From positions 1 through 63,900 of the IMG/VR virus record IMGVR_UViG_3300020469_000046: a stretch of DNA of 63,900 bases; one strand, given 5' to 3'. The position numbers were made by a program, and so were the translations under genes. Shown piece after piece: positions 618-60,959 of the stretch (the stretch's first letter is position 1; each line of letters opens with the position of its first letter). The notes below the pieces were generated by a model. It searched no databases, was not told the origin of the DNA, and worked only from the letters and a program-made list of their open reading frames with translations. Source of the stretch: a virus (taxonomy: Duplodnaviria; Caudoviricetes).

Positions 618-1091
618 ATGGGAATTTGTATGGGAGTTTCTACTATTTCAGGATTTTTTATGACTGCAATGGTAGGAACAATAACTCCCGATGAAGTAAA
701 AACTTATACGTCACTACATCTTGGAACTGAAAGTGATCTCCTCAGGTTCAAAGAACCCATGGGGTCATACGGAATACAATATGATTTAACCAATTTCATT
801 CAAGTATTTGCCGAGCACCAATCATCACCAATGCAATGTGATGATCATCCTGGATTGAACTATGCAGGATTTAAATTTACTGCCCCGTTGACTGATGATG
901 TTACTGCATACAGTGGAATCGCAGTAAAGAGTGGACAATTTGATAATAAAAATACTCTCAAAAATCCTATTATAATCAGTGGGATTGAAGTTGGTGGTAA
1001 TACAATCAAATTGTTTTCTGAATATATGCATAGTGCAGAGAGATTGAATAATGGTAGATTGTATGGCGGAGTCAAATATATTTTTAATTAA
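618..1091 (+). CDS. Hypothetical protein, possibly a small beta-barrel
   Basis: 157-aa ORF with hydrophobic N-terminus, alternating-pattern strands and aromatic C-terminus (GGVKYIFN). Confidence 0.55.
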   Translation: MGICMGVSTISGFFMTAMVGTITPDEVKTYTSLHLGTESDLLRFKEPMGSYGIQYDLTNFIQVFAEHQSSPMQCDDHPGLNYAGFKFTAPLTDDVTAYSGIAVKSGQFDNKNTLKNPIIISGIEVGGNTIKLFSEYMHSAERLNNGRLYGGVKYIFN

Positions 1092-1125
1092 CCTATACAA
1101 TAAATAAAACAAATCTTAAATTATT

Positions 1126-1347
1126 ATGTCTTGTAATCTTCGCGTCAAAATGTTAGATGCTCTAGTTGCTGATGCTCAAGGTAATATTGCCAAAGCAAAA
1201 GCAAACGTAGAAGTATACCTACACAATCCTGTAGGTATTGGTGAGCACCCTGATGTGCTTGCTGCTATTCAGGAACAACTAGATATCATTGCTCATGAAG
1301 AAGAACGTATCGAAGTTATCGGTAAGCACTTTAGTGATCACGAATAG
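1126..1347 (+). CDS. Conserved T4-like cyanophage hypothetical protein
   Basis: Helical-hairpin protein with a LHNPVGIGEHPD motif that I recall from T4-like marine phages. Confidence 0.7.
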   Translation: MSCNLRVKMLDALVADAQGNIAKAKANVEVYLHNPVGIGEHPDVLAAIQEQLDIIAHEEERIEVIGKHFSDHE

Positions 1348-1417
1348 AGGATGCTGTGGTGCTGGATGTCCAGACTGTCCATTCAGACCACCTCCTAGAC
1401 CGTCCACCTCTGTTTGA
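1334..1417 (+). CDS. Cys-rich micro-peptide (CCGxGCxxCP, DUF5522-like)
   Basis: Own translation from GTG: (M)ITNRGCCGAGCPDCPFRPPPRPSTSV*; ends inside the terminator stem. Confidence 0.4.
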   Translation: MITNRGCCGAGCPDCPFRPPPRPSTSV

Positions 1418-1432
1418 CAGGGGTGTTTTTTT
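1405..1432 (+). terminator. Rho-independent terminator
   Basis: CACCTCTGT-ttg-ACAGGGGTG stem (one G-U pair) followed by TTTTTTT. Confidence 0.7.
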
Positions 1433-1451
1433 ATTAATATCGATGACTCCC

Positions 1452-1481
1452 TTGACAATCAACTCATCCATCATCTATACT
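1452..1481 (+). promoter_or_regulatory. Sigma70-type (early) promoter
   Basis: TTGACA-18 nt-TATACT, about 30 nt before ORF 1513. Confidence 0.65.
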
Positions 1482-1512
1482 GCGAACAGCAATTTTATCA
1501 ATCACCCAAACC

Positions 1513-2055
1513 ATGACTGCTCTTGATTATGTCATCTCTAGAATTAATGAGTATGACATGAGCAAATTTAAGTATAATACTTTTCTAACACTAGATGAAA
1601 ATCGTGGTGCCTTTTTGTGGAGTAGAATTGCACAGTTCATTGGAGATTATGTTGAGGCAGCAATTCCTGAGTGGGATCCAGACCCAGAAGCATTGCATCT
1701 TGGTGTTGGTAAAAGGGTTGATTGGGAAAATTCCAAAATAGTTGTAGAACAAAAGAGAAATCCTAAAGGTGATAATTCAGCATCTAGAAAATCAAATCTT
1801 ATCAAATTAAAAGAATCTGCTTTGGAAAAAAATAAAATTCCAATTTATGCATATTGGGAAGATCGGGAAAAGAACGACTATATTAAAGATGATGTTCTTC
1901 ATCTGCATGGCAAAGCAATTTTTAAACATCTTGGTATAGAAGATGACTGGACAGACTTTCTTTCTCATGTGGATGATGTTAAGATGACTATCAAACAAGG
2001 ACTTACTAAAAAATTTAATGAGCATTATGAATCCTTTAGCACAACTTCTTCATGA
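1513..2055 (+). CDS. Putative PD-(D/E)xK type II restriction-endonuclease-like protein
   Basis: Motif order IGDYVE...RVD...VVEQK-RNPKGDNSAS...LHGKAIFKHLG resembles Eco47II-like type II REases (G-x-x-x-E helix, D, ExK, N-x-x-N-S). Confidence 0.5.
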   Translation: MTALDYVISRINEYDMSKFKYNTFLTLDENRGAFLWSRIAQFIGDYVEAAIPEWDPDPEALHLGVGKRVDWENSKIVVEQKRNPKGDNSASRKSNLIKLKESALEKNKIPIYAYWEDREKNDYIKDDVLHLHGKAIFKHLGIEDDWTDFLSHVDDVKMTIKQGLTKKFNEHYESFSTTSS

Positions 2056-2674
2056 AGATATTGATTGTAGAGATGCAAATGTAAAGGATTTTGTAGTCAA
2101 ACCAACTACTATTCAGTACGTAAGAGAATTTGTGGAGACATGGCATTATTCATCTAATGTTAATGGTCTCCGTATTTCTAATGTGTTTGGGTTATTTCAT
2201 AATGAAAAACTCATTGGTGCCATGATTTATGGTCCACTTGGAATGGCAAATACTTGGAAAAAGTATGCTAGTTCTGAGAATGAAATTGTAGAGTTACGTC
2301 GTCTATGTTGTATAGACAACACTCCAAAATGTACGGAAAGTTATTTTATTGGTAAAACATTAAGATGGTTAAAAAAGAATACTGACTATAAAATTGTAAT
2401 TTCTTATGCTGATACTTTTCATAACCATGAAGGGACTATTTACAAAGCATCAAATTTTCAACATTGTGGACTAACTGCAAAGGGTAGAGTAATCCAGTAT
2501 GGTGATAGGACTTATCATGATAAATGTATTCGTACATATCATGTAGATAAGAATGGTAATAAAAAATTAAAACCCTTTGCTCAGAGGGTCAAAGATGCTT
2601 TAGAAAATGGAGATGCAGAATATGTAGAAACTCCAGGAAAACACATTTATGTGTATAAATTAAAGAAAAAATAA
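2018..2674 (+). CDS. mom: Mom-family (GNAT-fold) DNA adenine-modification protein, copy 1
   Basis: WHYS, FGLF...LIGAMIYG, ELRRL, ESYFIG, ISYAD...HEGTIYKASNF motifs as in phage Mu Mom homologues. Start may be the ATG at 2027. Confidence 0.8.
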   Translation: MSIMNPLAQLLHEDIDCRDANVKDFVVKPTTIQYVREFVETWHYSSNVNGLRISNVFGLFHNEKLIGAMIYGPLGMANTWKKYASSENEIVELRRLCCIDNTPKCTESYFIGKTLRWLKKNTDYKIVISYADTFHNHEGTIYKASNFQHCGLTAKGRVIQYGDRTYHDKCIRTYHVDKNGNKKLKPFAQRVKDALENGDAEYVETPGKHIYVYKLKKK

Positions 2675-2675
2675 A

Positions 2676-2876
2676 ATGTTAACTATCATCAATCATGTAA
2701 CAGCTTTTTGGTCTGTTGTTGTGATAAATTGTATTCAACCAGTGAACTGGCAGTATTGTCTTCCAGTTCATGAATGGTTAATTCCAGATGTTTATCATGG
2801 TATTCAGATATACCTTGACAAAAACCATAACTCATTGTATAAATCAGAAAGAGACTACCTCGAACAAAATAAATGA
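2676..2876 (+). CDS. Hypothetical cyanophage protein
   Basis: 66-aa ORF tightly packed between mom and talC. Confidence 0.55.
   Translation: MLTIINHVTAFWSVVVINCIQPVNWQYCLPVHEWLIPDVYHGIQIYLDKNHNSLYKSERDYLEQNK
2815..2843 (+). promoter_or_regulatory. Promoter upstream of talC
   Basis: TTGACA-17 nt-TATAAA(T). Confidence 0.45.
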
Positions 2877-3532
2877 AAATTTTTCTAGATACCGCAGATA
2901 CAGAAGTAATTAGAGAACACTTTGAGACTGGATTAATTGATGGGATTACCACCAACCCCACATTAATCCGTAAGTCTGGAAGAGATCCTGAAGATGTGTA
3001 TCAGGAACTTGCTGACATTGGAATTAAAGATGTCAGTATGGAAGTTGTAGGTAATGCACAAACCATGTTGGAAGAAGGTCTCCGTTTATCTGAAAAGTTT
3101 GGTTCAATTGCTACAATTAAACTTCCATGTGATCGTGATGGTCTTCGTGTTTGCCATGAACTAAGTAAAGAAAAGATTCGCACTAATGTAACTCTTATCT
3201 TCTCTACTTCTCAAGCAATCCTTGCCGCAAAGGCAGGTGCAAGTTACGTTTCTCCATTTGTTGGACGCCTCAATGACAACTCTTTCAGTGGTGTTGAACT
3301 GGTTCGTGCAATCTCTGGCACATACAGTGTTCATGGAGTCCGTACAGAGGTCTTAGCGGCGTCTCTGAGAGATTGTCACCATGTCTCTAGGTGCATTCTA
3401 TATGGCGCTAATATCGTAACGATTCCTCCAGCAGTATTCTTAAAGATGTATGATCACGTTTTGACCCGTGAAGGACTTGCTATTTTTGAACGTGACTGGG
3501 CACTTGTCAATTCCCAATCTAATGATGTATGA
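2873..3532 (+). CDS. talC: Transaldolase (TalC/FSA family), auxiliary metabolic gene
   Basis: MKIFLDTAD, GITTNPTLI, catalytic K in TIKLP, NVTLIFS, SPFVGRL, LAASLR motifs. Confidence 0.96.
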   Translation: MKIFLDTADTEVIREHFETGLIDGITTNPTLIRKSGRDPEDVYQELADIGIKDVSMEVVGNAQTMLEEGLRLSEKFGSIATIKLPCDRDGLRVCHELSKEKIRTNVTLIFSTSQAILAAKAGASYVSPFVGRLNDNSFSGVELVRAISGTYSVHGVRTEVLAASLRDCHHVSRCILYGANIVTIPPAVFLKMYDHVLTREGLAIFERDWALVNSQSNDV

Positions 3533-3756
3533 TTAGAAAAGTTCGGGAATTTCTTCAAAGAGATAGTGATATCACGTATAAGATTGAACTTGATTATATC
3601 AAAATAACAATCGTTGAACTTATACATATTATGAAGTTAAATTTAAAAAATGCTATTGTATCCAACAGAAAAGGACTACTTATTTCATTTAGTGACAACT
3701 TCTCCACAAGAGGCAAAAAATCTCTGGAGAAAATCAATAAAAACGAAATGGGGTGA
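3529..3756 (+). CDS. Possible hypothetical protein
   Basis: ATGA-coupled to talC, but its last 107 nt overlap the HNH gene, so it is uncertain. Confidence 0.3.
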   Translation: MIRKVREFLQRDSDITYKIELDYIKITIVELIHIMKLNLKNAIVSNRKGLLISFSDNFSTRGKKSLEKINKNEMG

Positions 3757-4018
3757 ATGTGCTTACTGCGGATCAAAAGAAAATTTAACAATCGACCATA
3801 TAGTTCCCCGATCAAAAGGTGGAAATAACCATATAACTAATGTTCTATGTGCTTGTGAAAAATGTAATAAATCAAAAGCACATTATGAATGGGAAGATTG
3901 GTATTTTCAACAGGAATTTTTTGAATATACTCGTCATAAGAAAATTAACTCTTGGATGACTCAATTATCTGAGAGTGAGCTCAAACCCTATAAACCTCGA
4001 AAAAATTTAAAGTACTAA
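3650..4018 (+). CDS. HNH endonuclease
   Basis: CAYCG...LTIDHIVPRSKGG...NVLCACEKCNKSK. Confidence 0.92.
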   Translation: MLLYPTEKDYLFHLVTTSPQEAKNLWRKSIKTKWGECAYCGSKENLTIDHIVPRSKGGNNHITNVLCACEKCNKSKAHYEWEDWYFQQEFFEYTRHKKINSWMTQLSESELKPYKPRKNLKY

Positions 4019-32858: not shown

Positions 32859-33458
32859 ATGAAGAGTGATTTTTATATAGATAAAGTCTATAAGGAAGAT
32901 GTGAAGGGTCTTCTTTATACTCATCATTACTTAAAAGATGAATCAAAAGACTTTAAATCTGGATATAACTATGGACTTTTCAGGCATACTGATTGGGAAT
33001 GCCCTCTTAGAATTGGCGGGTGTATTGGTGTTTGTATTTTTACTGGTCTCCCAGTTCCAGAAATTGCCGTAGGTGCATTTGGATTAGAAAGAGATCAACA
33101 AGAAGGTTTATTTGAACTTTCTCGTCTCTGTATTGATCCTAAAACACAGGAAGAAGAATATAATATTACATCATGGTTTGTAAGTAAGTGTATCAAGCAA
33201 TTCAGAAAAGACGTTAACGTTCGAGCTATCCTTAGTTATGCTGATAGTTCTCGTCATAGTGGAACTATATACCGTGCTTGTAATTTTAATTATTACGGGT
33301 TAACAGAACCAAAGAAAGATTTCTATTACTTAGATGGAACAAAGCATTCTAGAGGGTCTGTAAAAGGATTAGAAGGTGAGTGGAGAGAAAGATCTCGTAA
33401 ACATCGGTATTTAATGGTATTCGATAAAAGGTTAAATATTTTATGGAAACAAAGTTAA
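32859..33458 (+). CDS. mom: Mom-family DNA modification protein, copy 2
   Basis: HHYL, YGLF, GVCIF, FELSRL, ILSYAD...HSGTIYRACNF.Y.G, KHRY. Confidence 0.8.
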   Translation: MKSDFYIDKVYKEDVKGLLYTHHYLKDESKDFKSGYNYGLFRHTDWECPLRIGGCIGVCIFTGLPVPEIAVGAFGLERDQQEGLFELSRLCIDPKTQEEEYNITSWFVSKCIKQFRKDVNVRAILSYADSSRHSGTIYRACNFNYYGLTEPKKDFYYLDGTKHSRGSVKGLEGEWRERSRKHRYLMVFDKRLNILWKQS

Positions 33459-60418: not shown

Positions 60419-60447
60419 AGCATAACACTGTTCAATTATTTCGTCAA
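60419..60447 (-). promoter_or_regulatory. Promoter for tRNA-Asn and the 2OG oxygenase
   Basis: TTGACG-17 nt-TATGCT on the minus strand. Confidence 0.55.
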
Positions 60448-60959
60448 GCCCCAGACTCAAAATAAAACTGTTTCCACTCCTTAATCGTTGTCTTTTCAAT
60501 ATCCAAAAGAACTCGATTAAACGGTGGTTTTGGTTTTTTTCTAAGTTTCATGTTAGTCTCATGCAATAATTTATCACCTTTTTTAACATTACAAGTTGCA
60601 CATGCAGCAACTACGTTATCCCAAGTATCTTTTCCACCTTTAGATCTGGGAATTACATGATCAATGGTTAATTTCTTTTTATTTCCACAATACTGGCATT
60701 CATAATCATCACGTTTGTAAATCAGTTGTCTTGATGGATTTTTTTCATTTTGATTAGAGAATGGTATCCTTACGTAATTAACTAATTTTATTACTCTATT
60801 AGAAATTTTTTTTGCTTTCTCTTTAAAAATTAAAACTATTGCTCTTTTCCAATTTGTAAAGTGTAGAGGTTCATAAGTACTATTTAAAACCAGTATAGTT
60901 GAGTAGGTCTGAGTATACTCCATACTATCCATTAGGTTGAAATTATTTAGCAGGACCAT
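60444..60959 (-). CDS. HNH endonuclease; likely start about 60923
   Basis: LVLNSTYEPL...RD.Y.CQYCG...LTIDHVIPRSKGG..TWDNVV.AC..CN..KG. Confidence 0.92.
   Translation of the reverse strand: MVLLNNFNLMDSMEYTQTYSTILVLNSTYEPLHFTNWKRAIVLIFKEKAKKISNRVIKLVNYVRIPFSNQNEKNPSRQLIYKRDDYECQYCGNKKKLTIDHVIPRSKGGKDTWDNVVAACATCNVKKGDKLLHETNMKLRKKPKPPFNRVLLDIEKTTIKEWKQFYFESGA

Follow-up and report, generated by a model that had tools for sequence, protein, structure and literature searches.

A two-gene cyanophage cassette that may couple a restriction-endonuclease-like protein to a Mom-family DNA hypermodifying enzyme

The DNA analysed here, called the window throughout, is a 63.9-kb contig of a T4-like cyanomyovirus (IMG/VR virus record IMGVR_UViG_3300020469_000046, positions 1 to 63,900; G+C 34.6%). 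On its plus strand, the gene orfA (1513-2055) encodes a 180-aa protein that resembles PD-(D/E)XK restriction endonucleases in family searches, profile-profile comparison and a fold model. The end of orfA overlaps the gene mom (2018-2674), which encodes Mom1, a 218-aa Mom-family DNA adenine hypermodifying enzyme of the GCN5-related N-acetyltransferase (GNAT) type (PF25680, phrog_1384). We consider it probable that positions 1405-2674 form a mobile two-gene cassette that works like a type II restriction-modification (R-M) system, with Mom in the place of the methyltransferase. The observation itself is confirmed, and comparative evidence drawn from sequences supports the interpretation. A sequence-only reading of the window had guessed a restriction endonuclease from the order of motifs in orfA, and this guess is borne out by profile homology to Eco47II, the predicted fold, invariant residues and a predicted homodimer.

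Association of orfA and its relatives with Mom or methylase genes

The strongest evidence for reading orfA and mom as a pair is their gene context. Recurring co-occurrence of the two families, which the sequence-only reading had proposed to look for, was found at every locus: Mom starts inside the end of orfA in 23 of the 23 IMG/VR loci that hold an orfA homologue. Identity to the window pair at these loci is 41-76% for orfA and 71-84% for Mom, and orfA appears to have diverged faster than Mom, as restriction enzymes usually do relative to their modification partners. The window's flanking genes are common to none of the 23 loci. At least four slots are occupied by the cassette (between regA and hsp20, between hsp20 and gp43, near psbA/psbD, and the window's own), the majority of copies lying between regA and hsp20 or between hsp20 and the DNA polymerase gene and one (L006) adjoining psbA/psbD. 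Only orfA and mom travel together between slots.

The sequence-only reading had also seen no DNA methyltransferase next to the pair, an absence that extends to the 56 ORFs (open reading frames) of at least 75 aa in the window, none of which matched a DNA methyltransferase family (4 scanned at E up to 1, 52 at E up to 1e-4). A tblastn search with two C5 methylases retrieved nothing in the window, and C5 methylases are likewise absent from all 23 orfA loci. The arrangement of a canonical type II R-M system, with an S-adenosylmethionine-dependent methyltransferase beside the restriction endonuclease, was thus not found within the window.

A sister clade of Eco47II-like proteins has a different partner. 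Across its 62 IMG/VR loci (L027-L088), a C5 cytosine methylase is adjacent in 60 and Mom in none; most of these loci are giant-virus MAG (metagenome-assembled genome) contigs, and of the two loci without such a neighbour, one is a contig that stops at the match. Set against the orfA loci with their Mom genes, these loci show one protein lineage to have two alternative partners, a methylase or Mom. In most sister-clade loci the C5 methylase lies just downstream on the opposite strand, and the combination of an Eco47II-like endonuclease and a C5 methylase looks like a widespread giant-virus R-M module. Between the orfA and Eco47II-like clades stand three further proteins (P0056, P0057 and P0060; profile E 5e-17 to 3e-8). 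Four scans (one of viral, two of metagenome and one of genome collections) yielded no contig with a relative of any of the three.

A third branch is represented by a gene of Synechococcus phage DSL-LC03 that carries the GenBank label "type II restriction endonuclease". By BLAST, the DSL-LC03-type protein shows only marginal similarity to orfA; profile comparison finds it homologous to the Eco47II-like set (96.2% over 162 columns) as well as to orfA (95.6%). The nuclease-like gene of DSL-LC03 overlaps a Mom gene by 38 nt, as in the window. Of 13 loci with a DSL-type gene, 10 have Mom after it and three are on contigs that stop short of the position in question. In a tree of Mom proteins, the DSL-linked Moms form a supported clade (95/98), and the orfA-linked Moms do not resolve into one.

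Lineage and predicted structure of the orfA protein

The orfA protein carries the motifs GDYVE (residues 44-48), VD (69-70), EQK (79-81) and DNSAS (87-91). All 27 aligned members of the orfA family share residues E48, D70, E79, K81, N88 and S91, which are among 40 invariant columns in total, and D70 and K81 remain invariant over 48 sequences from three clades. E48, D70, E79 and K81 are our candidate catalytic residues, and orfA thus has the constellation of a helix Glu, the PD Asp and (D/E/Q)-x-K.

Close relatives of orfA number 46 among 5.8 billion proteins, all of them unnamed or "hypothetical" at source. Its best PHROGs match is phrog_19881, at an E-value of only 0.092, and 50,697 phage records searched by tblastn contained no match. 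A profile of the orfA family retrieved 28 proteins of 60-257 aa from 1.84 billion representatives, and the family's hidden Markov model (HMM) reached Eco47II-like proteins at E 1.4e-6 to 5.6e-4 among 1.84 billion sequences. When the 16 most distant of the 28 profile hits, each of at least 100 aa, were scanned against Pfam, 13 matched RE_Eco47II (PF09553) at E up to 0.1, and eight of these passed the 25.9-bit gathering cut-off; one distant relative also matches PADLOC REase_II (E 2e-10). The orfA protein itself falls below the PF09553 gathering threshold. Aligned by hhalign to 11 Eco47II-like relatives, the orfA family scored 99.0% probability (E 4.6e-18, 125 columns), with D70, E79-x-K81 and DNSAS in register with GLD, ELK and TDNSSS of the Eco47II-like set.

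Against AvaII the orfA-family profile gave a non-significant alignment (E 0.85), in which G44/E48 stand opposite G119/E123, D70 opposite D147, E79-x-K81 opposite Q161-x-K163, and N88 opposite N170. In AvaII, E123 and D147 are reported to be metal ligands and N170 to read guanine (PMC7337904). The residues with which AvaII reads the central pair (H108, M112 and E115) are not kept in the same alignment, being A33, S37 and A40 in orfA. Profiles A1, A2 and A4 had no meaningful match among PDB sequences. At the superfamily level, orfA appears from these comparisons to be homologous to the Eco47II/EcoO109I/AvaII-like PD-(D/E)XK endonucleases. A protein-atlas feature search yielded influenza PA-X endonuclease clusters (0.90) and a PvuRts1I-like cluster (0.87), which we regard as leads only.

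An AF2 model of orfA built from an alignment of 48 sequences from the three clades has a predicted local distance difference test (pLDDT) score of 93.8 and a predicted template modelling (pTM) score of 0.87. It supersedes a first model built from 27 close homologues, which had a pLDDT of 79 (51-68 in the catalytic core) and gave weak matches only, namely EcoO109I at E 0.17 and long-helix rows in a wide VIA search. The best Foldseek match of the newer model is DNA-bound EcoO109I (E 1.2e-3, probability 1.00, TM 0.59). The sequence-only reading had suggested comparing the fold of 1513-2055 with PD-(D/E)XK nucleases, and such matches were indeed returned by VIA-align: EcoO109I at Z 8.8 (root-mean-square deviation, rmsd, 4.6; 171 of 180 residues aligned), AvaII at Z 6.5 (rmsd 4.8; 138 aligned) and Hjc at Z 6.4, with PD-(D/E)XK-type nucleases making up those of the remaining 50 rows that were identified. 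An unrestricted VIA search gave mostly long-helix matches at Z of about 7, with BsaWI and Hjc at Z of about 6. We take the modelling as moderate evidence that orfA has a restriction-endonuclease fold.

Modelling also supports a symmetric homodimer of orfA. The predicted dimer scored 0.47 against 0.01 for the best control; among known one-chain pairs 20 of 30 reach the 0.47 mark, and among single chains 1 of 23 does. Three runs gave at least 81% contact agreement with a partner pLDDT of at least 88. The predicted interface comprises residues 22-39, including the invariant ENRG motif, and residues 157-161. The prediction may reflect likeness, as similar dimers (EcoO109I, AvaII) have been solved.

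The Mom proteins, the cassette borders and their genomic setting

The sequence-only reading had called the product of 2018-2674 a clear Mom homologue, and so it is: Mom1 matches PF25680 at E 1.3e-35 (123.4 bits against a cut-off of 27.1) and phrog_1384 at E 1.5e-59. Aligned to Mu Mom (8bv8_A, E 6.9e-6), it keeps the Mu catalytic residues except R151, with Mu H58, Y59, R111, S124, D149 and Y159 present as H43, Y44, R95, S108, D132 and Y142. The chemistry given for Mom in that reading did not stand, since it has been revised: the donor is Gly-tRNA(Gly) and not acetyl-CoA. Mu Mom is reported to transfer glycine from Gly-tRNA(Gly) to adenine N6, a rearrangement then giving N6-carbamoylmethyl-dA; it modifies adenines in SAS contexts, R111 and S124 being essential and D149 and R151 important, and Mu Mom and mined homologues are reported to be sufficient alone (PMC13219725). 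Mom1 is probably active, judging from its conserved residues, and by analogy with Mu would use the same cofactor and motif.

A second Mom-family gene (Mom2) lies at 32859-33458 on the plus strand and encodes 199 aa (PF25680, E 1.1e-20). Its BLASTP similarity to Mom1 is confined to one 86-residue stretch with 38% identity, it has no restriction-endonuclease-like ORF upstream, and its best phage match (52%) is to a non-cyanophage, Roseobacter phage CRP-212. From this divergence and this best match, the phage would seem to have acquired two Moms independently, one coupled to a nuclease and one alone.

The terminator, near-consensus promoter and two overlapping ORFs described in the sequence-only reading were all found where it had placed them. 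An intrinsic-terminator-like hairpin with T-run (1405-1432, plus strand) ends the upstream gene (1126-1347) and forms the left border of the cassette; the hairpin proper (1405-1425) has a 9-pair stem with five G-C pairs, followed by TTTTTTTATT, and its loop contains a TTGACA hexamer (1414-1419). The sigma-70-type promoter-like site that follows (1452-1481, plus strand; TTGACA, 18 nt, TATACT) matches the consensus at 11 of 12 positions and is the best of 13 candidate sites across 1000-3200, a count that is not unusual given a mean of 10.3 such sites in shuffled sequence. Related loci repeat the arrangement. In all 13 distinct upstream regions, drawn from 22 related loci with upstream sequence, a promoter site scoring 10-12 of 12 lies 21-42 nt ahead of the start codon, and the printed upstream sequences often have the -35 hexamer inside the loop of the preceding terminator hairpin. 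Two examples are L003 (3925-4000) and L010 (2645-2720), in which the -35 TTGACA sits in the hairpin loop of the preceding gene, ahead of a T-run and a TATAAT box. The composite promoter-terminator upstream of orfA homologues resembles, by analogy, the PeSL promoter-terminator motifs, which reportedly mediate modular shuffling in T4-type phages (PMC2839356, PMC4122927). At the other end of orfA, the 38-nt overlap with mom (2018-2055 on the plus strand, from the ORF coordinates) suggests that the two genes are translationally coupled.

Elsewhere the window carries talC, nrdC, speD, thyX, phoH, gp32, gp59, CP12 and baseplate and fibre genes. Just left of the cassette, positions 1100-1435 are 85-94% identical to Synechococcus phages ACG-2014e, i, b and d by megablast, and the alignments to these cassette-less relatives end at about 1435, that is, at the hairpin. 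The cassette itself had no megablast match among the 50,697 phage records, and in ACG-2014e the slot that it fills in the window is occupied by purC. The cassette thus sits in a variable accessory island, as shown by the end of the flank match at the hairpin and by purC in the ACG-2014e slot. In a virome run, a 3.5-kb contig spans 1371-3000 with zero differences, and contigs from other variants part from the window at 1393-1402, again at the hairpin. Near-identical sequence occurs in marine and viral metagenomes, with at least half of the sampled words found in 15 runs from 9 studies, 8 of which runs may contain the source sample. Five contigs of about 150 nt, 100% identical to the window, lie inside 1355-2474 and come from two oligo-dT RNA-library runs of one study, libraries in which DNA may be present; in a third RNA run, coverage is restricted to the gene upstream of the cassette. 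As DNA carry-over is possible, we take these contigs as a weak sign of cassette expression and do not count them as proof. The accessory regions also hold two HNH endonuclease genes, at 3650-4018 (plus strand) and 60447-60959 (minus strand) (PF01844 and PF14279), which are possibly homing endonucleases.

Proposed function, rival explanations and known systems

In the mechanism that we propose, orfA would be a homodimeric PD-(D/E)XK endonuclease with its origin in the Eco47II/EcoO109I/AvaII lineage of GGNCC-cutting enzymes. The cassette would be transcribed, presumably early, from its own host-type promoter, and Mom would be translated from the overlapping downstream frame, coupled to orfA. Mom would then convert adenines of the phage to N6-carbamoylmethyl-adenine by way of Gly-tRNA(Gly), as in Mu. 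Incoming phage DNA would already be modified and Mom would keep replicated phage DNA so; its mark would block orfA on phage DNA, marking it as self, and the orfA dimer would cut unmodified DNA, whether the host chromosome or that of co-infecting phages without the cassette. We infer in this the nuclease activity of orfA, an overlap of the Mom target with the cleavage site, and the biological role. The fuller claim, to which we give about an even chance, is that of a true R-M system whose self mark is N6-carbamoylmethyl-adenine and not methyl: an Eco47II/AvaII-type endonuclease that swapped its cytosine methylase for Mom, was re-tuned to an adenine-containing site, and spreads as a promoter-terminator-bounded cassette among marine and freshwater cyanophages, destroying host DNA and excluding rivals.

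Several observations weigh against this interpretation. The 23 orfA loci are all related cyanophage contigs, several of them near-identical, and are not 23 independent events. No match to orfA was found in Pfam (E up to 1), NCBIfam or PADLOC; the 11 Eco47II-like sequences aligned by hhalign came from orfA's own profile hits, their Pfam assignment being the independent element; and in the structure comparisons the Foldseek E-value just misses 1e-3 and the Z of 8.8 is close to the tool's "common" range. The DSL-type branch has Q for the E of ExK, though AvaII too has Q-x-K. Mu R151 is replaced in Mom1 by F134. In phage S-SSM7, a Mom that is 67% identical to Mom1 stands alone (L002, 2998-3621). 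This gene comes directly after four tRNA genes and has no restriction-endonuclease-like gene with it; this Mom perhaps either was orphaned by loss of its nuclease or represents the ancestral state.

The target site adds to these difficulties. EcoO109I (RGGNCCY), AvaII (GGWCC) and Eco47II, which from its Pfam description we take to cut GGNCC, form one specificity group, and a GGNCC-like core for orfA is our guess from this lineage and from the alignment of Asn88 with AvaII Asn170. A GGNCC-type site holds at most one adenine, in its central pair and on one strand only, so adenine modification would be ill suited to protecting it if the specificity is unchanged, and with modification of one strand only, one daughter duplex would be unprotected after replication. 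In GGWCC the adenine does have G-A-C (SAS) surroundings. Of the 57 GGNCC sites in the window, 53 are GGWCC, matching expectation. Neither GGNCC (57 observed against 57.4 expected) nor GGSCC is depleted in the window, and palindrome statistics gave no cassette-specific signal for a target. AGCT is strongly depleted in the window (39 against 111.5 expected) and equally so in the cassette-less ACG-2014e (56 against 149.8, counted over L102, 1-50000), so this depletion is not tied to the cassette. GGTACC is also depleted in the window (1 observed against 12.2 expected), and in the freshwater DSL-type loci (L089-L101) CCGG is found 0 times against 33.8 expected and GGACC once against 15.0. These depletions probably reflect host restriction pressure, and the orfA target has probably shifted from a GGNCC-type site.

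One alternative keeps the same biochemistry but makes the cassette itself the unit of selection, as a selfish, homing-like or addiction module. On that account orfA would cut cassette-less genomes in mixed infections, repair or recombination at the flanking promoter-terminator stem-loops would copy the cassette in, and any benefit to the phage would be secondary. In its favour, copies of the cassette sharing nothing but the two genes occupy no fewer than four different hyperplastic slots, and the promoters of the 13 upstream regions with their often PeSL-like placement of the -35 in the terminator loop, the divergence of the variant-phage contigs at the hairpin, and the two HNH genes in the same window point the same way. 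R-M systems are generally mobile and selfish, however, so that this account, which we think unlikely, overlaps with the R-M interpretation more than it competes with it.

We find it more improbable that orfA is a nuclease-derived, non-cleaving DNA-binding partner that either targets or regulates Mom, as a controller protein or a gene in the position of Mu com might, or fixes the sequence context of its modification. Cleavage is itself a prediction from sequence, the upstream overlapping position of orfA mirrors com-mom of phage Mu, and the glutamine of the DSL-type branch takes the place of the ExK glutamate; yet all 27 aligned family members keep E48, D70, E79 and K81, and active AvaII is reported to share the Q-x-K (PMC7337904). 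Nor does orfA look like a zinc-finger Com: it has no Com-like family match, and it is 180 aa long with a predicted restriction-endonuclease fold, and Mu Mom and its mined homologues are in any case reported as self-sufficient (PMC13219725). Less probable again is that orfA is a real restriction enzyme protected by a conventional methyltransferase elsewhere in the phage, with Mom as a general anti-restriction gene in the same island. The phage is known from its 63.9-kb contig only and a methylase could lie elsewhere in its genome; in 4 of the 23 loci (L007, L010, L023 and L024) the cassette is preceded, at a distance of 1-2 kb, by a gene for a D12-class N6-adenine methylase; and 36% of cyanophages are reported to carry Dam (PMC12801897). 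The first two of these points count against our preferred R-M interpretation as well. However, core genes (clamp loader, regA) intervene between the D12 gene and the cassette, and cassette-less S-SKS1 has the D12 gene too, whereas the Mom overlap is kept in 23 of 23 orfA loci and 10 of 10 testable DSL-type loci, in different slots, and the orfA loci lack the C5 methylase that is adjacent in 60 of 62 sister-clade loci.

The sequence-only reading had known of no characterised pairing of a nuclease with Mom, and there it has to be corrected in that the idea does have a precedent. Iyer, Anantharaman, Krishnan, Burroughs and Aravind (2021, Viruses 13:63) describe Mom fused to restriction-endonuclease-fold domains in jumbo phages and predict joint restriction and protection (PMC7824862), so the concept itself was already in print as a prediction. 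The logic of these "momylation" systems is the same, in that Mom protects phage DNA and the nuclease attacks the host or superinfecting phages. Theirs, as described in that paper, are fusions in group 2 jumbo phages, whereas here two separate overlapping genes are found in T4-like cyanophages of the 170-230-kb class (approximately); both are predictions from computation. Neither the 28 profile hits (60-257 aa) nor word-index searches covering 99-315 and 451-2000 aa contained a fused form, with 316-450 aa covered by profile search only. Klebsiella jumbo phage RaK2 was considered as a carrier of a fused Mom and rejected, its Mom being a stand-alone 194-aa gene. In the literature we found no experimental characterisation of a pairing of Mom with a restriction endonuclease. 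The DSL-LC03 genome paper mentions neither Mom nor a restriction endonuclease, and a 2025 cyanophage paper treats Mom only as a counter-defence gene, called new to cyanophages (PMC12801897). What is new here is the unfused, overlapping two-gene form, the placement with Eco47II/EcoO109I/AvaII, the methylase-coupled sister clade, the two Mom-coupled branches, and the mobility among cyanophage hyperplastic regions.

R-M is defined in practice by methylation, and a bulky, tRNA-derived adenine mark of self would, if true, widen that definition and give Mom a second role beyond evading host enzymes. With its small size (180 and 218 codons), a nuclease lineage that includes solved structures and a sister clade with C5 methylases, the cassette offers a clean system for testing the prediction of Iyer et al., and one equally suited to the question of how a nuclease changes its protector. 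In the ecology of cyanophages, it may be a weapon that breaks down host DNA or lets one phage exclude another.

The closest known relatives of the proposed nuclease are the type II R-M enzymes of the Eco47II/Sau96I/EcoO109I/AvaII (GGNCC) group, with which orfA is predicted to share the fold, the E...D...(E/Q)xK layout and the homodimer, as well as the K-x6-N spacing that leads to the guanine-reading Asn170 of AvaII. Enzymes of that group pair with a C5 or N4 cytosine methylase, whereas orfA pairs with Mom; the solved ones are 238-272 aa long against 180 aa for orfA, which lies below Pfam thresholds. Giant-virus MAG contigs hold most of the sister clade of orfA, with its C5 methylases. In the com-mom operon of phage Mu, Mom is likewise preceded by an overlapping gene and serves to block restriction; there, however, the upstream gene encodes Com, a small zinc-binding translational activator of mom, where the cassette has a restriction-endonuclease-like nuclease, and Mu Mom is a stand-alone counter-defence against host enzymes. 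Viral nucleases that spare their own modified DNA and can degrade host DNA are known from the R-M systems of chloroviruses and giant viruses and from T4, with EndoII and EndoIV alongside hydroxymethylcytosine. Those systems use methylation or replicative base substitution, whereas the cassette would use a post-replicative, tRNA-dependent hypermodification of adenine.

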